Below, piece after piece: positions 95 to 57,421 of a DNA stretch of 64,000 nt. Source of the DNA: an uncultured bacterium (lineage in GTDB: Bacteria > Patescibacteriota > Gracilibacteria > Absconditabacterales > Absconditicoccaceae). The position numbers were made by a program, and so were the translations under genes. The stretch's first letter is position 1, and every line of letters begins with the position of its first letter. A model generated the notes under the pieces. It saw only the letters and a list, made by a program, of their open reading frames with translations. It was not told the DNA's origin and ran no database searches. The stretch is from contig CAJZIX010000003.1 of NCBI GenBank assembly GCA_916049765.1, positions 12,520 through 76,519 of the forward strand, written 5' to 3'.

Positions 95-1474
95 TTAGCG
101 TCCTTTAAAGATTACTCCAAAAGTCCCTACAATCACATACATATCTAACCATAATGACCAATTCTGAATATAGTACAGATCCAATTTCGCCTCCTGATCA
201 AAACTCAAAGAATCTCTTCAAAAAACCTGTGCATACCCTGTAATTCCTGGCTTGATACTCAAGAGTCTTTTTTGCCAAGGAGCATAATTCTCTACCTCAT
301 GCTGAAGATGTGGCCTTGGACCTACAAGTGACATTGTACCCCACAATACAGAAAAAAGCTGAGGCAATTCATCAAGTGAAGTCTTACGAAGGAACCTTCA
401 TACTTTCGTTACTCTTGGATCATTCTCAATTTTTGCGAGCACCCCTTCTCTAGTATTTGCTTCAGAGTTGATGAGCTTTTTATAGAGCTCCTCAGCATCT
501 TTACCTCCATACCCGACACTCAAATGAGTATACATTGTACGAAATTTTAAAAAGGTAAAAAGCTGACCTCCTGTTCCCACTCTTTTAGATTTATAAATCA
601 CAGGACCTTTACTATCAAACTTAATCAGGATTGCAATAAGAAGAAGCAAAGGAGAAAGCACAATAATTCAGAAAAACGAAGCAATTAAATCAAAAAGCCT
701 CTTCACGACAAGAGATCGTCCATCAAGTTTGGAATGTTTATATTCTAATGCAACAATATTCTGAATAATCTCTGGCTTATAAACAACATCTTCAAGAAAA
801 AAGCCCTCACTAATATGAAAAAACCTTGTATCATGAAATCTTGTCCTCTCAAAAATAGCTTGAAGCTGATCTTTTTTAAACGTTCAAACAACAACACACA
901 TTTCATATTGAGAAAAATCCGTTTCTTCGGCTTCATCAGGAGTAATAAATTCCGTTTTTAGAGAAAAATTTGCTTTTATTGTCTTTAAAATCTCGTAAGT
1001 ATCAATCGTTTCCTCAGAAATAATCAGAATTTTTCTTCAGGATTTTTTTTGTTGCTGATATTCTAAGGCTCTCCAAGCCTGATCAAAGAAGAAGAGTACA
1101 ATATAAGTAAGGATACCTGAAAAAATAAGAATGAACCTAGAAATTCAAAAGAAAAAGATAAATCCTTGGCCAAAATAAGAAAGAAAAGTAATCGAAATAA
1201 ACCAATAAATCCATGTCTTAGAAAAAGTTTGAAAATGATTAATAACTCTCTTATTCAGGCAATAAAAATCCTTAATAATTCAAATACCGATAAATCCAGC
1301 ACTTGCAATAAACGAGAAAATAGCAAGTTCAGTTGCATTAATAAATGGGATAGGAAGTTGAATACCCGGGATTAAATCTGTCCACAGCCTAACCTTATAG
1401 GTGAGGAGAAAGAGAGCATTGATAAGAAGAAAGTGTAGAAAGGGTCTACTTAGACGGAGTTTGAACATCGGCAA
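95..1474 (-). CDS. Polyprenyl-phosphate glycosyl-1-phosphate transferase (WbaP / bacterial sugar transferase family), multi-TM N-terminus plus catalytic C-terminus
   Basis: Track pieces 398..661 and 1280..1474 and the unlisted pieces between them share one frame once TGA=Gly. Reads [11 protein letters not shown](G)[31 protein letters not shown] ... DPRVTKV(G)[29 protein letters not shown]. True stop TAA at 95-97. Start is TTG 1474 or ATG 1468. Confidence 0.85.
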
Positions 1475-1627
1475 AGAAAGAAAATAAAATCAATTCTTTT
1501 GTAAAAAGCCTTTGTTTTTTTGGAGTATAGGATTTTTTTAAATAATTTCCAGTGAATATTTTTAGATTTCTCTTGCAAGAGGAAATAAGATAACTATCTT
1601 CTATTCAGTTTTACTTATTTGTTTTTT

Positions 1628-2326
1628 ATGACACAGGAGAAAACGATCATCATCGATAGTTCACGAAAAAATATCTTAAAAGAAGAATTTGAAAAACCAT
1701 ATTTTTTTAAAATAAAAGAAACTTTAAAAAAAGAGCTCTCCTCGGGACACTCAATCTATCCACAGGGGAAACAGATATTCAACGCTTTTAATTTAACCCC
1801 TTTTGATCAGGTAAAGGTAGTGATTCTCGGACAAGATCCTTATCATGGAACAGGAGAGGCTCATGGACTGAGTTTTTCTGTCCCAGAAGGAATTAGAATT
1901 CCTCCTTCTTTAAGAAATATCTTCAAAGAACTAAAAGCTGATCTCGACATTGATCCTCCTCTCAATTGAAATTTAGAGAAACGAGCTAAACAAGGGATTC
2001 TCCTCCTTAATGCAAGTTTAACGGTAAGAAAGAACAGTCCAAACTCTCATAAAGATATTGGATGGCAAATTTTTACTGATGCGGTCATCAAAACTCTTTC
2101 CGATAAAAAAGAAGGCATCGTTTTCATCCTCCGAGGTGCATTTGCACAACAAAAAGCAAGCCTCATTGATACTGATAAACATTTTATTCTCAAATCAGCA
2201 CATCCCTCACCTTTCTCTGCAGATAGAGGATTTTTCTGAAGTAGACCCTTTAGCCAATGTAATGAAATCCTTGAATGTATCGGAAAGAAACCAATCAACT
2301 GGGATTTAACTAACAACACCATATAA
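1628..2326 (+). CDS. ung: Uracil-DNA glycosylase (family 1)
   Basis: GQDPYHG motif, then ...PPLN(TGA)NLEK(CGA)AKQGILLLN...[12 protein letters not shown](TGA)S. This aligns with E. coli NHGYLESWARQGVLLLN and RGFFGC. Two in-frame TGA at Gly positions, stop TAA 2324-2326. Confidence 0.92.
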
Positions 2327-3974: not shown

Positions 3975-5741
3975 TTATTTTTTTCCTTCTAAATTTTTTA
4001 GATGATTAGCAAGATTAGCAAAAATCTGATCAGGTTTATTTCTATTTTTTATATCTCCAAGAACTCGATCTAAAGCCACTTCTAGCAACTCTCCAATAAT
4101 TTTTCCTGGTTTAAGATTGAAGTACTCCATTATATCTCTCCCCTTAACTGCAAGATCTTTAGATCTAAATTGCCCTTCTTCTTGTTCAATTTCAAGGAGA
4201 AGTTTTTTGAGATACCGAGAATCGCTAAGATCACTTGCATTCTGGAGTGGATTATACATCCCCATTCTATCTGCGATATTGATATCAAGAAGATTATTTA
4301 CTCTTTCAAAACCAGCATCAGAGAGGAGTTTTCTAAGTCTCTTAGCTCGATTCTGAGGATTTCCGAGGAGAATTTCTCAAGGAGTATGATGCTCTCTAAT
4401 ATATCGCTGAATCTCCTCAATCTCTTTATGAGAAAATCAAAGGTTTCTAAAATCCTCTTCAGCAAGCACCGCAGAACTAAACCTATGGTTAAGCGGACCC
4501 GCCAGAAGGATTCTGATTTCTTCTTTTGAAAGATTTTTCCCATATTCTGCATATTGACCAACTTTTCCGACATCATGATAAAGCATTGCAAATCTGACTA
4601 AGTAATTTGTGTTAATTGCTTGAAGGTGATAGAGTGTCAAGATAATATGCGAATAAATATCAAATGGATGATACCTAATCGGCTGATCAATATGTTTAGT
4701 TAGTGCAAGTGCAGGAAAAAGAATTACTAACATTTCTGCCTCGTCTAAAAGTCCAACAAGACCAAAAGGGTTACCTTGAGAAAAAGCTTTTGTAAGTTCT
4801 TCTTTAATTCTTTCCTTAGCAATAGTTTTAAGGAGATTATGATTAGATTTAATCGATTTCCAAGTTTCTGGCTCAAAATCAAAAAGTCTTACTTTATTAA
4901 TAGGATCAGATTTTTTATTTTTAGTTGTAGTGAGGAGTTTTTGATTCAAGACATTAACGAACCTCAGTCCCCTCAAAAGTCTAAGCGAATCTTCTTGAAA
5001 CCTCGTATCAGGATTACCAACAGTTCTTAGCTTTTTTAGCACGAGATCTTGAATTCCCAATGCTGGATCAATCAGAATTTGAAGTTGAATCTGCTTTTTT
5101 CCCTTTTTTTCTCCTGCTCAAAAGATGTAGGCATAAGGCTGAATATCTAACAAATAATACAAAAAATCAGTATCAAGTTTTGCATTTGGAATAAGCTGAG
5201 AAAGGAGTTTTTGACTCTGAATAATAAGAGTTTCATTATTTTGAAGATAAATAAACCCCTCTTTATTTAAAATTTTAAGAAGCATTTCCTCATTTATTAT
5301 CTTTTTTTGCTCATATACCGGTGTTTTCAACTTTTGCTGAGTATAATAGATCGCATTAATCGTAAAATCCCTTCTCTGAACATCTAAAAGCAAATCATCA
5401 CTCCAAAAAATTTCCTCTGGATGTCTACAATCTTGGTAACCAGTTTCAGCACGAAGAGGTGTAAGCTCATATTTAAGTTCATTATCCTTATCTTTGGGAA
5501 TCAAGGTAATAGTACCGTATTTTTCAGTTATAAAGTGAGAGATTCCATCTTTATCGATGTTTTCATATATTTCCAAAGGATTTCCTGCCATCGTAAAATC
5601 AATATCAAGAGGATTCTTAGTGGTTCCAAGAAGTATCTCTCTTACACAACCTCCCACAAGAAAAAAATCTGATTTCCCTATTTTTTTAGTTAGAAAAACA
5701 TGATGAGGAATCAGTTTTTTAAGATTATTAAAATGAAGCAT
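3975..5741 (-). CDS. cca: CCA-adding tRNA nucleotidyltransferase with C-terminal HD domain
   Basis: Track pieces 3975..4265, 4437..5060 and 5118..5741 are in one frame, and I checked the gaps codon by codon (only TGA, no TAA/TAG). GGCVREILLG...DIDF, RDFTINA, HD motif YHDVGK. Confidence 0.88.
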
Positions 5742-5949: not shown

Positions 5950-6816
5950 ATGAGAGGAATTGTTCAAAGCAAACCATTTGTCAAAAAATCTCAGAAAAGA
6001 TTGTCTTCACATACAAACTTCTTTTTTTCAACAAAAAAAAGAGGGAAAGACCAATATTCCTTATTGTTTCTTTTTTTTAAAAAATGGGGAGTTTTAATTT
6101 TTATCATCTTTCTTTCTTTATTATTAGGAATCTTCATTCTCAAAGGAACACGATACAACCCTGCATACTTAATCAAAAAAATTGAATATTCAGACACAAC
6201 AAGAAAAAATTATGGGAATACTGAACTTTTTGTCCTTGCATCTAAATTTCTTAGAGGGAAATATTATAATACCTTGAGAGTTAACTGAGAGAAACAGCTT
6301 ACTGATTGGATAAAAAAATCCTACCCTTTTGTAAAATCAACAAAACTTACTTTTCATGGCAACCAAACACTCAAAGTAGACATTACTTTCTTTGAGCCAG
6401 AGTTTTTGATAAAACTAGGAAACAAAAAATTCGGTATCTGGGAAGGAGGAATAAGTGATGAATTAGATGATCAACGATCCCTTGGAAAAACTGGTTTTAT
6501 CGTAGATACTCCATCCTATCTAACAGGAACAACCTCCCTTTCTGGCTTCTTTTATGAAGTGAATTATCAGCGATATAAAGACTTTTTACCAGCCATTCAG
6601 GAGGCTTTTCCTCATATGAATCGCTTTGTCTACTTAGCGGGATCGCCAAATTTCGTGATTTTTGAGGAGAATAAAATGATCTTTCTCTATAGAGATAATC
6701 CTCTCTATCAGCTTCAAAAACTCGCTTGGCTTAGAAAGTATTATGCAGATTATAAAGCTCTAACAACTATTGATCTTGGAAGTTTAACTCAAGAAAAAAT
6801 CGTAGTTGGAAAATAA
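5950..6816 (+). CDS. Membrane-anchored FtsQ/DivIB-like (POTRA-type) protein, tentative
   Basis: 5950..6288 and 6406..6816 share a frame, joined through one TGA. One N-terminal TM helix followed by a pattern resembling the POTRA/FtsQ fold (YPFVKSTKLTFHGNQTLKVDITFFEP). Weak similarity judged by eye only. Confidence 0.45.
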
Positions 6817-6862: not shown

Positions 6863-6917
6863 ATTACAAAATAATATTAATAATTTTCCCTTGGACAAAG
6901 ATCACTTTCTTTGGCTC

Positions 6918-9863
6918 TCAAATAAGGTAGGAAGCCAGCTTTTCATCTTTTTTGATAAGCTCCAAAACCTCTTCTTGACGAGCATCCGCAGCAATTTGTA
7001 AAGTTCCCCTCATCTTTCCATTGAACTGCACAGCAAGCGTGATTTCTGAACTTACAAGAAACTTCTCATCATACTCTGGCCATACCCCTGTTGTAAAGAT
7101 TGAAAACTGATTTCCGAGAAGGTTCCAAAACTCTTCCGCAAGATGCGGCGCAAAAGGAGCAATCAGCATTACGAGTTTCTCAAAAGTGCTTTTAGAAAGT
7201 TTTTCCGCTTCACTGAGGGCATTAACCAAGATCATCAGCTGAGCAATAGAAGTATTGAACTTAAATTCATCAATCTCTTGAGTCAGCTTTTTAATCGTTT
7301 GATGAAGAATGGTAAGGATTTTCGCTTCATCTTGATAGTTCTCATCTGCTTTATCAAAGAGTGCAATGATCTTATCAATAAACTTTTTTACGCCCTTCAT
7401 CCCTTGCGTATTCCAAGAGATCGCCTGATCAAAAGGTCCCATAAACATCTCATAAGTTCTGAAAACATCAGCTCCATATTCAGCAATCACATCATCAGGA
7501 TTCACGACATTTCATCGCCTTTTTGACATTTTACGACCATCTTCCGCCATAATGAGTCAGACTTTTTGATATTTTTGGAAAGGTTCATCTTTACTTACCA
7601 AACCGAGATCATAGAGGAATTTCTGCCAAAATCTCGCATAGATAATATGCCTCGTCACATGTTCAGCACCACCGACATAGACATCTACATTTTTCCAATA
7701 CTGCTCACTCTCTGCTGAAACCAACTCATTATCATTCTCTGGATCCATATATCTCAGCCAATATCGGCTTGATCCAGCCCAACCCGGCATCGTATTAGAT
7801 TCCCTTTTCGCTGGTTTTCCACAGATCGGACACACAGTTTCAATCCAGTCTTTTACCTCCGCAAGCGGTCCTTCCTCGGTTCCTGTTGGTTCATAGTTTT
7901 CTACATCAGGCAAACATAAAGGTAAATCTGATTCCTTCATCGGAACGACTCCATGTTCTTCACAGAAAACTACAGGAAACGGCTCTCCCCAATATCTCTG
8001 CCTAGAAAAAACCCAATCCTGAATTTTGAAATTCGTTTTCTTTCCTCCAATTCCTTTTTCTTCAAGCCGTTTCTGCATTTTCATAATCGCTTCATCAGAT
8101 TTTAGACCTGAGAATTCTCAAGAATTAAGAAGTACTCCCTTCTCCGTATACGCTCCATTTCCAGCCAAATAAGCCTTCAATCTTTCCAAAGAATAAAGAT
8201 ATCCTTCTTTTTGTCCTTGAATTGTTTCATCAGCCCTCATTGATAACAAATCCCTTTCAAACTCTTCTAACGAAACCCAAATAAGTGGACAATCAGTTTC
8301 ATATTCTGTTAATTGCTTTGGAACACGATGTTCTGAATTAAGTTTACAAAGGAAAGAATTTGCATTATTCTCTCTCCAAGTATTTTTTAGATCAGCATAG
8401 TAAAAGGACTGATTACAATCAAACTGTCCGATACAAGAAACATCATCATATCCTGTTTCTTCTTTTATTTCTCTAAGAGTTCACTCTAAAATAGTCTCTC
8501 CCTCTTCAATAGTCCCTCATGGCATCCAATACTTTTTATATTTTCCATTTTCTTCATATCCCACTAATAGTTTCTGCTCTTTTTCATCATAAATGTATGC
8601 ATAACCTGAAAGTTTAGCTTGAGCATCTGGATTTCTCCTTCCAAAACTTCCTCCAATCACATAATCGATTGGCAATCCATACTTCTTTGCAAAGTCAAAA
8701 TCTCTCTCATCATGAGCAGGTACCGCCATTACCACACCGGTTCCATAGTTGGCAAGCACATAATCTCCGATATAAATCGGCACTTCCTGATTATTAAAAG
8801 GATTGATAGCATAAGCCCCTGTGAAAACTCAGGTCTTCTCTTTTTGAAGTTCAGTTCTTTCCAGTTGTGTTTTGTGTTTTGCTTGTTCTTGATAGGCTTT
8901 TACGGTTTCTAGTTGTTCTGGAGTCGTGATTTTTTCCACCAAAGGATGTTCTGGAGCCATCACGACAAAACTCATTCCAAAAACGGTATCAAGTCTCGTA
9001 GTATAGACTTCAAAAGCAAGTTCTTCACTGGATTGCTTCGCTTCGCTCGCAATGACCTGCATTTTGAATTGAGAACCTTCACTCTTTCCAATCCAATTCC
9101 TCTCAAGCTCTTTCATAGATTCATCTCGTTCCAAGTTTTCAAGCCCATCAAGCAATCTCTGAGCATATTTCGTGATTCTCAAAACTCGCTGTCTCATTGG
9201 TTTTTGCTCTACTTCGCTTCCACATCTTTCACATTTACCATCATCCAGATCCTCGTTAGAAAGTCCTGTTTTACAGTGTGGACATCGGTTGATTGGCTTA
9301 AAATCCAAGTAAGCAAGCCTTTCGTTATCCAAAATAAACCTGATTTCTGATTCAGATTTTCCTTCTTTTTTTAGTTTTTCTTCAAGTTCTGTGATTGGCT
9401 TCGCCTTTTCCTCTTTCTCATCATAGTAGTGATTGTAAAACTTGAGAAAAATCGCCTGCGTCCACTTGAAATACTTCGGATCAGCAGTACTAAAGCTCCT
9501 TTCTCGGTCATAAGAAAATCCAATATTTTCTAGCTGTTTGATATAGGTTTCTATGTTTTTCTGAGCTACGATCTGAGGTTTCATCTTGTGCTCAATCGCA
9601 TATTGCTCTGTCCCCACTCCAAAAGTATCAAATCCCATCGGATGCAAGACATTGTAGCCTTCAAGCATCTTTTTCCTCGCAATCGTATCCGATGCAACAT
9701 AACCTTTGGGATGACCGACATGAAGCCCAGCTCCACTTGGATAAGGAAACATATCAAGAATATAGAATTTTGGCTTATCTTTACTTTCTAGGGTTTGATA
9801 GATTTTGGCTTCAGTTCGCTTCTTTTGCCATTTTTCAGCAAGAGTGGTAATATCAATCGGCAT
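6918..9863 (-). CDS. leuS: Leucyl-tRNA synthetase (bacterial type, with CP1 editing domain) carrying an extra inserted Nudix domain
   Basis: Four track pieces (6918..7505, 7557..8084, 8517..8783, 8829..9863) are in one frame. I translated 8085..8516 by hand and found only TGA interruptions. HVGH (HIGH), [33 protein letters not shown] and [10 protein letters not shown] are present, collinear with B. subtilis LeuS. Confidence 0.93.
8148..8654 (-). other. About 165-aa insertion inside LeuRS containing a complete Nudix box
   Basis: The segment sits between LPIDYVI and [15 protein letters not shown], which are about 13-20 aa apart in B. subtilis and E. coli. It contains (G)[11 protein letters not shown](G)[11 protein letters not shown] at 8448-8519, matching G-x5-E-x7-R-E-U-x-E-E-x-G-U. 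Confidence 0.75.
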
Positions 9864-10095: not shown

Positions 10096-10710
10096 ATGTT
10101 TTTTTGTAAAAAATATTTTCCACACTTTTTATTAGTCATCTACTGCTTACTATTCATAATATGTGCAATTCATCCTTATAATAGAGCCGTACGATTTACG
10201 GAAAATTTACCTGTCATGGTAGTGGTACTCTTTCTTGTTTACACCTTTAATAAACGAAATTTTTCAAATAGCTCATATTTTTTGATGAGTTTTTGGATCA
10301 TCTTGCATACTATAGGAGGACACTATACGTTTGAACTAGTTCCTTTTGACAGTATAAATCAGCTTTTTGGTTGGGAAAGAAACATGTACGATAGAATAGC
10401 TCACTTCATGATTGGAGTCTATGCTTTCCCTATTATGGAATACCTCTGGAGATCAAAAGCAATACAGCAAAAGTGGCTTTTATATACTTTCGGTATCTGT
10501 AGTATTCTTACTATCGCTGGAGCTTATGAAATTTTTGAGTGGCGATTTGCAATTATTGCAGATCCAAAAGCTGGACTTGCTGTCCTTGGATCACAAGGAG
10601 ACATCCGAGATGCTCAGAAGGATATGCTGATGGATACCTTGGGTGCAATATTAGCAATATTCTTTTTTATTATAAGGGAGATTTTTATCAACAGAAAAAA
10701 GACTGACTAA
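10096..10710 (+). CDS. YjdF-like inner-membrane protein (DUF2238 family)
   Basis: Uninterrupted ORF with 5-6 TM helices. Motifs GGHYTFELVPF, W(E)RNMYDRIAHF and QGDI(CGA)DAQKDM as I recall for the family. Confidence 0.6.
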   Translation: MFFCKKYFPHFLLVIYCLLFIICAIHPYNRAVRFTENLPVMVVVLFLVYTFNKRNFSNSSYFLMSFWIILHTIGGHYTFELVPFDSINQLFGWERNMYDRIAHFMIGVYAFPIMEYLWRSKAIQQKWLLYTFGICSILTIAGAYEIFEWRFAIIADPKAGLAVLGSQGDIRDAQKDMLMDTLGAILAIFFFIIREIFINRKKTD

Positions 10711-11906
10711 TGCACGAAGACGAGCTCCTTTCAAGTTATAACTATGAACTTCCAGAATCACATATTGCTCAGGTTCCAAGTATACCTGCTCACTCTGCAA
10801 AAATGATGATCTGCTCCATCGATCAAAAGGGGAATTGTAAAACTAAAGATCAGATTTTTTTTGATTTAACAGAAAGTTTAAATAGCAACTATCTTCTTTT
10901 TCTCAATAGAACGAAGGTCTTTAAAGCAAGAATCCCTCTACATAATGTGAAAATTATCAGAAAAAGCGGAAAAGAAATTCAGCTTTTAGAAGGAGAAATC
11001 TTTGTTTATGCTATCCAAAGCCAAACTGAGTTTGAATGTTTAGTTTCTGATAGCAAAAATTTCAAACCAGGAACAAAAATTCTTTTTAATTCGACCACAA
11101 CACTCCATTCTTTACATTTTACAGAAAATGGGATTCTCTTTAAAATAGAAGGAGATCAGATTTTTTCATTTCTGGAAAAGATCGGAGAGATGCCACTCCC
11201 GCCCTATATTAGCTATGAAAAAGAAAAGGAAAAACGATACCAAACTTTCTTTGCTGAGGAGATCGGTTCTGCTGCTGCTCCGACAGCCTCTCTTCACTTC
11301 ACTCCAGAACTTGTAAGAAAATTAGAAGAGAAAAAAATCTGATTTCAATATCTTTGTTTACATGTAGGATTAGGAACATTTAAACCGATTTATGAAGAGC
11401 ACATTACAGATCAAAAGTTACATTTTGAACCAATGCTCTTGGATATGCAAATTCGAAAAACAATTGCTGATGCAAAAAAAGCAGAGAAAATCTTTCTCCC
11501 AGTAGGAACCACAATGATTAGGTATCTTGAATCTTTACCCTATATTTGGAAATTCTTAAAAAAGAAAAATCTGACTTCCCCGATTGATTCTACAACAAAG
11601 GCTCGGCGAGATGATTTAACGGATCCAATTGATGAAACATTGGTAGCGGAATTCCTCCCTGAACAAGAAATATCCGATGCAAAAATCTTAACAATCCAAA
11701 CAAGACTATTCATCAGGCCAGGAATCCCTTTTTATCTAACCGACGAACTGATCACCAACTTTCATTTACCAAAGTCTTCATTAATGATGCTAATTTCTGC
11801 ATTTATGGGAAGAAAAAACCTCCTGAAATGCTATCAAGAGGCCATTGATAAAGATTACAAATTTTATAGTTTCTGAGATTGAATGCGAATAAGAAAGGAG
11901 AATTAA
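10710..11906 (+). CDS. queA: S-adenosylmethionine:tRNA ribosyltransferase-isomerase
   Basis: 10710..11342 and 11433..11876 are in one frame. YELPESHIAQ, MPLPPYI, TNFHLPKSSLMMLISAF. The C-terminus YKFYSF(TGA)D(TGA)M(CGA)I aligns with E. coli YRFFSYGDAMFI. ATG overlaps the upstream TAA. Stop TAA 11904-11906. Confidence 0.9.
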
Positions 11907-12331
11907 TCGCTATGGTTCAAAGTTTCCAAAATATCCTGATTTGTAGTTTTCATAAGATTCGCAGAATGAAAAGCCTGCATTCCTCGTTCTTTTTGAGCAT
12001 TTAATTGTTTAAGAACTTTTCGATAAATATTTCCTTTCCTCTCCTGAAAATCATAGTTCTCATACCAACAATAATTTAAACAATCAAAAGTAAACTTTCC
12101 TATGGTCCTTCCCGTTTCATCTGAAAGTAAAAATGTTTCAGAAATAAGACGTCCTTTCTTATCTTTTTCAGAAGAAAAAACTTTACAAAGTTCAAACTCC
12201 TCCCCATTGACTTCAAATATCACACTCTTTCCAGCATGAAGATTTTTTAACTGTTCTGCAGAAAAAGACGAGAGCTGAATATTTTTCTCCTCTCTTCCTA
12301 AAAAACGAGCAAATGTTTCTTTTAATTTCAT
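11903..12331 (-). CDS. Hypothetical protein (142 aa)
   Basis: Uninterrupted ORF, last gene of the minus-strand block. No motif recognised. Confidence 0.5.
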   Translation of the reverse strand: MKLKETFARFLGREEKNIQLSSFSAEQLKNLHAGKSVIFEVNGEEFELCKVFSSEKDKKGRLISETFLLSDETGRTIGKFTFDCLNYCWYENYDFQERKGNIYRKVLKQLNAQKERGMQAFHSANLMKTTNQDILETLNHSD

Positions 12332-12344
12332 GAGATAATAATGT

Positions 12345-12740
12345 TTATTTAATAAAACGCTTATATTCTACAAAGCTTCTCCTCTTCAAATTTCAAGAAG
12401 TCGGCATGTTCTGATTTTGTATCTGATCTACACCAAACTCCTCTTTACCTTTATTGAGTTCTCTTTGCAACTCTAAGAGTTCATCGGCCCTTTCGTCAAT
12501 TTCCTTTTCTACTTTTTCAATGGTCGCCTTGAGTTCTTCAGATTTATTGTAAACATTTTGATACCCTCAAATATCCCCTTTTGCCTGAAGAGCGACCATA
12601 TCCCTTTTAAAGTTTTCGTAAATATCAAAATACTGATTGTAGGCTTCAATCTCCGTCTTGAGTTTAGCTTTTTCCTGTTTAATTTCTAGCTGAATTTCTC
12701 AAGATTGATATTTATCAGCAGCTGAAGTACAGCTCGTCAT
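12345..12740 (-). CDS. Small coiled-coil protein, possibly a lipoprotein whose signal peptide is cut off by an in-frame TAA
   Basis: From ATG 12740: MTSCTSAADKYQS(G)EIQLEIKQEKAKLKTEIEAY... to TAA 12345-12347. Directly upstream and in the same frame lies VAKKRGRTFVVAATSAFLLNS, a lipoprotein-type signal, preceded by TAA 12804-12806. Confidence 0.5.
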
Positions 12741-57100: not shown

Positions 57101-57336
57101 AGTAATACTGTTTAATAAACTAAAAGTTAAACATAACTAAACTATATAACAATTTCCTCCATAATTGCAAGTAATTCTTCAAAAAAAAAGTTGATCTTGA
57201 TCATTTGGCAGACCCCACTAAAAGATAGTGAGCTACCAACCCTATTTCAAAACCACTCTCCAAATATTTAACCAAATCAAGTAAGGCAATATATCTAGAG
57301 AACTTCTTATTTTCTAAATTAGCAATCTTTTTAACC

Positions 57337-57410
57337 TCGGGAATGCGGGACTCGAACTCGCGACCTCTTGGTCCCAAACCAAGCGCTCTAGCCATCTGAG
57401 CTAATTCCCG
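57337..57410 (-). tRNA. tRNA-Pro (anticodon UGG)
   Basis: Hand-folded cloverleaf: CGGGAAT/ATTCCCG acceptor stem, GCTC/GAGC D stem, CTTGG-TTTGGGA-CCAAG anticodon arm, TTCGAGT T-loop. No encoded CCA. Confidence 0.85.
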
Positions 57411-57421
57411 AGAAAGAATGG

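Follow-up and report, generated by a model that had tools for sequence, protein, structure and literature searches.

Aminoacyl-tRNA synthetases (aaRSs) are among the most conserved of proteins, and the accessory domains that they carry usually serve tRNA binding or editing. Leucyl-tRNA synthetases (LeuRSs) of both the bacterial and the archaeal/eukaryal type carry lineage-specific short peptide insertions in the CP1 editing domain, the periphery of which tolerates insertions. To our knowledge, these insertions are not known as strain-variable cassettes, and as short peptides or structural elements they are unlike the subject of this study, a complete, putatively autonomous enzyme domain nested in the LeuRS of an uncultured bacterium of the Absconditicoccaceae (Gracilibacteria, Patescibacteriota). 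The gene lies in a 64,000-nucleotide stretch of contig CAJZIX010000003.1 (assembly GCA_916049765.1, forward-strand positions 12,520 to 76,519), which we call the window and by which all coordinates below are numbered. The segment at 8157-8654 specifies a complete Nudix pyrophosphohydrolase domain, by appearance catalytically competent. The Nudix superfamily, bacterial LeuRS and aaRS accessory domains are each already known; the nested LeuRS-CP1-Nudix arrangement is undescribed in the literature that we searched, which covered few subscription-journal papers, in agreement with an earlier sequence-only reading of the window that knew of no LeuRS or other aaRS with an internal Nudix module.

The leuS gene occupies 6864..9863 on the minus strand and encodes 999 amino acids followed by a TAA stop under genetic code 25. 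Its single frame runs continuously through the Nudix segment, interrupted only by seven in-frame TGA codons read as glycine, so the in-frame fusion proposed in the sequence-only reading stands. Because five of these codons, all in LeuRS-homologous segments, align with glycines of Thermus thermophilus LeuRS, the TGA=Gly assignment is well supported. One TGA codon lies directly N-terminal of the Nudix box (residue 449, 8517-8519) and another within it (residue 461, 8481-8483); the remaining ones are at 8829-8831, 8118-8120, 7557-7559, 7512-7514 and 6918-6920.

Alignment to solved LeuRS structures places the insert at residues 404-569 (8157..8654, minus strand), in accord with the span of 8148-8654 proposed before. 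Residues 403 and 570 of the window protein pair with residues 362 and 375 of the T. thermophilus enzyme, and residues 413 and 570 with residues 389 and 393 of the Escherichia coli enzyme, such that ~155-165 residues stand here where the model enzymes have 4-12. The sequence-only reading had put the insert after the end of CP1, a placement that needs correcting: the Pfam editing-domain model (PF13603) is interrupted by the insert at position 148 of 185, and the insertion point is followed by a further 44-54 residues in crystallised CP1 constructs (2ajg, matched over 26-152 of 196 residues, and 4k47, over 14-138 of 192). On these grounds, the alignments put the insert inside CP1, about three quarters of the way along, in a surface segment between the strand that follows the AHDERD motif and the TEKGxLxNSGxF strand.

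The only Pfam family found on the insert is NUDIX (PF00293), which matches residues 422-543 (8235..8600, minus strand; profile positions 8-126 of 134) with 45.5 bits (E 9e-12) when the whole protein is searched and 49.9 bits (E 4e-13) when the insert is searched alone, against a cut-off of 21.1. The Nudix box, G450-x5-E456-x7-R464-E465-I466-x-E468-E469-x-G471-Y472 (8448..8516, minus strand), is fully canonical. Its G, E, R, E, E, E and G, together with one tryptophan, are invariant in 11 homologues of 21-28% identity that were recovered by a protein search without imposing the box. Aromatic residues are conserved at +16/+17 after the box (Tyr488/Tyr489 here), as are K, N and R downstream of it. 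A tyrosine ~16-18 residues past the box is a marker of ApnA hydrolases, which we treat as a lead only; the insert has these tyrosines but matches no ApnA-specific model, and its similarity to the Ap4A hydrolases 3I7U and 1F3Y is that of Nudix proteins in general. Equivalog models were likewise not reached, neither those of MutT (TIGR00586, 19.4 versus 97.9 bits; NF008044, 19.2 versus 148 bits) nor those of RppH (NF001938, 27.8 versus 116 bits; NF001936, 26.7 versus 118 bits). The 64 kb of the window hold no second Nudix domain besides that in leuS.

For the fold we relied on two proxies, the insert of a relative that shares 66% identity with the window insert and in which the glycines are correct (P0001), and a full-length LeuRS that is 97% identical to the window protein and has tryptophan in place of glycine at seven positions (P0121). 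AlphaFold2, given an 18-sequence alignment, modelled the P0001 insert with a predicted local distance difference test score (pLDDT) of 84.7 and a predicted template-modelling score of 0.81. Foldseek returned 398 PDB matches to this model at E<=1e-3, and the best 50 of the 398 are all of the Nudix fold; the top matches are 2AZW, the Aquifex aeolicus Ap4A hydrolase (3I7U), a putative CTP pyrophosphohydrolase, AtNUDT7 and E. coli RppH, with a probability of 1.00 to 2AZW, 3I7U, RppH and others, and Ap4A hydrolases as well as RppH with bound Ap4A are among the neighbours. In the full-length P0121 model, the block at residues 400-570 has a pLDDT of 73-94, mostly 84-94, and forms the region between the strand at 403-407 and the strand at ~577. 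These models predict that the insert adopts the alpha/beta/alpha sandwich of the Nudix fold and folds as an independent domain, as the sequence-only reading had asked.

An artefact, whether a chimeric assembly, a frameshift-joined neighbouring gene or an intein-like selfish element, has practically no chance of explaining this architecture. Nothing beyond the higher AT content of the segment relative to its flanks speaks in its favour, and the evidence against it is broad. The 97%-identical, 999-residue P0121 protein occurs with the same gene order on 23 independent contigs from different samples, up to 524 kb long, which rules out a chimeric assembly; the frame is continuous; and the architecture recurs in at least 120 species genomes. 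An intein or homing element is excluded by junctions (DYVI/GGSFG... and ...AYTEKG) that lack splice motifs and by the presence of only the NUDIX family on the insert, and a mobile element with terminal repeats by the finding of just short chance repeats around 8000-8800, with no repeats flanking the insert.

The host protein is itself a recognisable bacterial-type LeuRS, passing the equivalog threshold of TIGR00396 (leuS_bact; 875.7 bits, cut-off 548.4), and in the PDB it matches T. thermophilus LeuRS best (E 6e-180). By sequence and alignment it retains its signature motifs: HIGH (HVGH, residues 48-51, 9711..9722, aligned to HMGH of T. thermophilus), KMSKS (KMSKR, residues 778-782, 7518..7532), and, within the N-terminal three quarters of CP1 (residues 255-411, 8631..9101; PF13603, 207 bits, model positions 1-148 of 185), the T-rich motif TTRLDT (residues 288-293, 8985-9002) and the AHDERD motif (residues 383-388, 8700-8717), all on the minus strand. 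The C-terminal part of CP1 and the linker that returns to the catalytic core follow the insert at residues 570-625 (7989..8156, minus strand), as the third domain of the alignment, which starts at residue 570. Two further differences from T. thermophilus LeuRS lie elsewhere in the protein: an additional ~38-residue segment N-terminal of the Zn-binding module (residues 145-182, 9318-9431), which is modelled as helical with a pLDDT of ~90, and the absence, at residues 775-778 (about 7530-7540), of the ~55-residue leucine-specific domain (T. thermophilus 582-636). A related metagenomic LeuRS fragment with 54% identity (P0002) carries both the Nudix domain and a ~125-residue insertion after its FCKHCG zinc motif (TLGEHLHTINFYNQ...KFELIDIAQV), marking another insertion hotspot in these LeuRSs.

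The sequence-only reading had proposed a survey of LeuRS orthologues in genomes of the candidate phyla radiation, and such a survey revealed the same insertion widely. Metagenomic fragments assigned to Liptonbacteria, to a 'Patescibacteria group' and to an ACD aquifer bacterium combine PF13603 with PF00293, with the insert at the same position and 31-36% identity. Scanning one genome per GTDB species with a gapped DNA pattern (a 10-residue motif, 216-246 nt, then RExxEExG) recovered at least 120 loci in species-representative genomes, mostly of Patescibacteria. In nearly all of the loci listed, the spacing from MAVPAHD to SRQRY is 220-245 residues, as compared to ~80 in ordinary LeuRS, and the insert hidden Markov model (HMM) matches all but one, truncated, locus among them (1e-20 to 1e-59). 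Since the scan pattern itself imposes RExxEExG, conservation of the box across these at least 120 loci is partly circular, and we judged conservation from the homologues found without the box and from a tally over the family representatives described below.

By depositor label, the loci listed are mostly from Saccharibacteria, Paceibacteria/Parcubacteria, Gracilibacteria, Berkel-, Magasanik-, Uhr-, Falkow-, Kaiser-, Taylor-, Nomura-, Adler-, Buchanan- and Moraniibacteria. Metagenome-assembled genomes (MAGs) from animal guts, labelled Bacilli, Erysipelotrichaceae or Clostridia, make up a further, coherent group, and among the loci listed it is this gut-MAG group to which the window Nudix domain is closest (33-40% identity). 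The Nudix insert is thus a common feature of Patescibacteria LeuRS. The sequence-only reading had named as grounds for its refutation that the insertion prove to be a common and already annotated feature of LeuRS, and this applies in part: common it is in Patescibacteria, and the combination of PF13603 and PF00293 does appear in automatic Pfam annotation, but it has no description in the literature searched. One Patescibacteria contig (L006) shows the LeuRS-Nudix pattern twice within 6.9 kb in inverted orientation (1358-1641, plus strand; 5294-5577, minus strand), probably a palindromic assembly artefact.

We also compared a profile of the insert with 1.84 billion representative proteins, which yielded 918 clusters at E<=1e-10, 150 of them at E<=1e-30. 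A LeuRS editing domain is present in 97 of the 114 subfamily representatives longer than 235 residues. Some LeuRSs (P0300-P0311) have two or three Nudix copies, either in tandem at the canonical site or at another site, close to the N-terminal linker of CP1. Other hosts include a prolyl-tRNA synthetase (ProRS; P0416), with the subfamily Nudix nested between its anticodon-binding domain and its C-terminal domain, and a GNAT-Nudix-GNAT-PepA fusion (P0408). Nudix-bearing LeuRSs may hold additional hydrolases at various sites: a Ser-hydrolase in 11 representatives, a HAD domain in three, Ham1/ITPase in two and a PD-(D/E)XK nuclease in one. In P0326, P0325, P0436, P0333, P0361 and P0395, a Ham1/ITPase, a HAD phosphatase or an alpha/beta Ser-hydrolase occupies one of three other positions. 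Free-standing homologues of 160-164 residues (P0241-P0249) score 142-180 bits against the insert profile, and their genes lie beside an IMPDH-like gene or beside ndk, the gene of nucleoside-diphosphate kinase. The strict box is found in 115 of the 162 domains tallied over all representatives, and most of the remainder have Gx5Q, a replaced arginine, or tryptophan for glycine through mistranslation. Judged by these profile matches, the inserts form a Nudix subfamily of their own, hosted mainly by Patescibacteria LeuRS, along with that of Bacilli-labelled gut MAGs.

Comparing the window protein with its nearest full-length relatives revealed that the Nudix domain lies in a segment that varies between strains. 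The flanks of these relatives are 93-99% identical to those of the window protein, and the difference is confined to residues 396-577 (8133..8678, minus strand), a cassette bounded by ...DFDFAKKY and NS-G(TGA)-EFSGL. Outside this segment, strains that have nothing in common within it are 93-100% identical. In one relative (P0121) the cassette holds the same Nudix as the window; in a second (P0122) it holds a Nudix ~57-62% identical to that of the window; in P0123 and P0124 it holds an unrelated 172-residue module without a Pfam hit; in P0127 an 80-residue module; and in P0125, P0126, P0128 and P0129, which share the same gene neighbourhood, a 32-residue linker with no insert. The 9-kb loci of these strains are collinear (a queA-like gene, DUF2238, leuS, a 288-residue gene, a CCA-adding enzyme and a patatin), and their DNA matches the window at 90-100% for the most part, apart from mosaic blocks in which identity drops to ~76%; only within the cassette is the match lost. 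Compared with the strain that has the divergent Nudix, the window shows a synonymous divergence (dS) of 0.22-0.27 in the flanks, whereas the proportion of synonymous differences (pS) in the cassette is 0.71, which is saturated, and the ratio of nonsynonymous to synonymous divergence (dN/dS) of the cassette is ~0.13. The Nudix cassettes are, then, old alleles under purifying selection within a young backbone. Because insert-less alleles occur in backbones of 93-99% identity, the Nudix domain is dispensable for LeuRS; in the population of this organism, the site is a dispensable cassette that is exchanged by recombination.

The same polymorphism occurs in a second backbone group, which resembles P0134 and has a different gene neighbourhood; it includes an 85-residue module and a 152-residue cassette (P0135) that matches the insert HMM weakly (E 1e-4), has lost the REUxEE box and was treated as a degenerate Nudix. 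The 172-residue cassette is 97-99% identical in nucleotide sequence between two groups whose leuS backbones share only 64-86%, a disparity that marks a recent transfer between species, brought about by recombination in the conserved flanks. We considered whether this cassette is a diverged Nudix and found no support, as it has no Pfam hit at E<=10 and an hhalign probability of 2% against the insert profile. A further backbone (P0130), with flanks 86-87% identical to those of the window, carries a 174-residue cassette (L132 811-3783, residues 394-570) that contains GG-x-HEDCDF. It has sub-threshold matches to aminoglycoside-2''-nucleotidyltransferase (18.5 bits, cut-off 21), covering the GG...HxDxD region, and to NTP_transf_5 (18.1 bits), and a PDB search reached ANT(2'')-Ia at E 0.1; by these resemblances the cassette may be a minimal nucleotidyltransferase. 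All cassettes have in-frame TGA codons and are richer in AT than the backbone, the GC content at third codon positions being 0.21 in the window cassette and 0.36 in its flanks. Flanking repeats were not found at the cassette site, viral contigs yielded no relatives of either the Nudix or the 172-residue cassette, and metagenome contigs of the Joint Genome Institute (JGI) yielded none of the latter.

Around the window gene, leuS is flanked by tRNA-related genes, with a CCA-adding enzyme (PolyA_pol+HD) downstream, a queA-like gene (Queuosine_synth) upstream, and DUF2238 and a 288-residue open reading frame in between. Mapped from the collinear locus L126, and therefore approximate, these neighbours lie at about 3975-5741 (minus strand), 5950-6816, 10100-10714 and 10714-11910 (all plus strand). 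Farther away, three clustered tRNA genes, Pro(TGG), Ile(GAT) and Phe(GAA), occupy 57336-57597 (minus strand); tRNA-Gly(UCA) was not found within the window. From 40000 to 64000, the GC skew of the plus strand is persistently and strongly negative (to -0.39) when set against the remainder of the window, which would fit one replichore or a long stretch of genes on the minus strand.

As to function, we favour a reading in which the Nudix insert would be an autonomous, Mg2+-dependent nucleotide-polyphosphate hydrolase, tethered to and co-expressed with the abundant, essential LeuRS of a streamlined genome. Its likeliest substrates would be non-canonical or surplus (deoxy)nucleoside triphosphates, or dinucleoside polyphosphates such as Ap4A, in a house-cleaning role; the domain would not be a step of aminoacylation or proofreading, and the CP1 segment would serve as a structurally permissive docking site. 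Such a domain may be autonomous in principle because free-standing homologues exist and because subfamily members also reside in a ProRS and in the GNAT-PepA fusion; the insert-less alleles and the purifying selection on an intact box agree with this reading, and house-cleaning is suggested by the Ham1, HAD and Ser-hydrolase domains co-nested in LeuRS, by the ndk and IMPDH-like neighbours and by the structural neighbours of the insert. We give this tethered house-cleaning hydrolase about an even chance of being correct, and several observations weigh on the other side. The association with LeuRS is non-random (97 of 114 representatives, up to three copies, two CP1-adjacent sites), which speaks for the domain being functionally linked to tRNA or to the chemistry of aminoacylation, and the only other clear enzyme host among the representatives is another aaRS, ProRS. 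Strain polymorphism, old alleles and inter-species transfer resemble conflict loci more closely than housekeeping genes. Moreover, ~29% of family members have variant boxes, and no substrate-specific curated model was passed, the highest NCBIfam score being 27.8 bits for RppH, whose cut-off is 116.

The preference for the CP1 of LeuRS, being strong, repeated and multi-copy, would be explained if the Nudix domain were coupled to its host as a built-in clean-up or repair activity, either removing the Ap4A or Ap3A formed as a by-product from Leu-AMP and ATP or ADP, or acting on the CP1-bound end of tRNA-Leu. The nesting of a subfamily member in ProRS points the same way, as do structural neighbours that are Ap4A hydrolases or RppH bound to Ap4A and, as a lead only, Tyr488/Tyr489 at the position that marks ApnA hydrolases. 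Yet near-identical backbones have at this site either no insert or an unrelated cassette, which shows that LeuRS can do without the domain; free-standing homologues exist; LeuRS also hosts unrelated hydrolases; and the literature searched, with its few subscription-journal papers, ties no Nudix enzyme to tRNA 3' ends, pyrophosphorylated or otherwise. We regard such coupling as a tentative possibility, one that is probably wrong. The sequence-only reading had also suggested hydrolysis of aminoacyl-adenylates, for which we know of no precedent in Nudix chemistry.

The polymorphism suggests another explanation, namely that the site is a conflict locus where interchangeable nucleotide-acting modules shield LeuRS or tRNA-Leu from nucleotide-mimic inhibitors or from tRNA-end-modifying toxins of phages, hosts or competitors. 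A single species-level population has at least five alternative states of the site, with alleles much older than their flanks (cassette pS 0.71 versus flank dS 0.22-0.27); the 172-residue cassette is near-identical between species whose leuS genes are not; the P0130 cassette approaches an aminoglycoside nucleotidyltransferase model (18.5 bits versus 21); and NCBIfam lists an isoleucyl-tRNA synthetase (IleRS) with a GNAT domain, in which a domain that modifies small molecules is likewise embedded in an aaRS. The polymorphism is equally well explained, however, by neutral turnover at a loop that is permissive and prone to recombination, and neither a known defence or immunity signature at the site nor relatives of either cassette on viral contigs came to light; across most Patescibacteria, moreover, the Nudix insert appears to be stably inherited rather than variable. 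We consider a conflict locus unlikely. A broader form of the idea, in which CP1 of code-25 Gracilibacteria-like LeuRS, and perhaps of Patescibacteria generally, is an 'immunity region' that docks horizontally exchanged cassettes (Nudix, nucleotidyltransferase-like and unknown folds) kept by diversifying or frequency-dependent selection for their action on the acceptor end of tRNA-Leu or on nucleotide-mimic toxins aimed at LeuRS, seems to us improbable to a similar degree: the cassettes are exchanged, and a conflict function for them is speculative. Least plausible of these functional explanations is a catalytically silent Nudix that serves the window LeuRS as a ligand-sensing or a structural or RNA-binding module, comparable to Nudix-like regulators. 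The degenerate domain without REUxEE at the same site in P0135 would fit it, as would the ~29% of the family with variant boxes (Gx5Q, R replaced), but the box of the window copy is fully canonical and invariant in distant homologues, and the cassette is under purifying selection. For these same reasons, a degenerate structural insert, as entertained in the sequence-only reading, is improbable for this copy, and we think a silent module very unlikely.

Whichever explanation applies, the arrangement goes beyond a routine domain fusion in its breadth across Patescibacteria, in its multi-copy forms and, above all, in forming an exchangeable cassette in an essential gene. The presence, absence or replacement of a whole domain among strains in an essential single-copy gene, together with inter-species transfer, is unusual. 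LeuRS of these ultra-small bacteria is a scaffold for nucleotide and metabolite hydrolases, a role that bears on housekeeping chemistry in streamlined genomes or else on an unrecognised link between aminoacylation and nucleotide signalling through Ap4A. Since alleles with Nudix, with another cassette and with no insert occur in near-identical backbones, they provide natural isogenic controls by which function is directly testable. Gene calling with code 11 or 4 fragments or mistranslates such genes, placing W for G in the Nudix box, so that automatic annotation misses the domain: in this lineage, public gene calls (P0013, P0121-P0240) use code 4 or 11 and read the TGA glycines as W or split the gene, and PF00293 annotation has been lost in this way from intact Nudix-bearing LeuRSs (P0136, P0152, P0223 and others).

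Set beside described systems, the insert is closest to 2AZW, a 'MutT/nudix family protein' of Enterococcus faecalis of unknown function, which is its best PDB match both by sequence profile (6e-14) and by structure. 2AZW and the free-standing homologues P0241-P0249 share with the insert the fold, the box and an aromatic-aromatic-A-x-H-K-x-x-N-R motif, yet they are independent genes, whereas the window Nudix is nested in a domain of another enzyme. The Nudix Ap4A hydrolases of A. aeolicus (3I7U) and lupin (1F3Y) and E. coli RppH are structural neighbours of the insert (TM 0.6-0.75) and hydrolyse a by-product of aaRS side reactions, but their likeness in sequence is limited to the general Nudix core. 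The house-cleaning pyrophosphatases MutT and Ham1/RdgB offer a parallel in that Ham1 is nested in some Nudix-bearing LeuRSs (P0326) and a free-standing Nudix homologue adjoins ndk; MutT differs in that the insert scores below the cut-offs of its equivalog models (19.4 versus 97.9 bits). The 'isoleucine--tRNA ligase, N-acetyltransferase domain-containing' family (NF040702) is likewise a class I synthetase of the Ile/Leu/Val group with an extra small-molecule-modifying domain. It is, however, a different synthetase with a GNAT rather than a Nudix domain, and the score of the window protein against its model, 71 bits where the cut-off is 1999, comes from the synthetase core that the two have in common.

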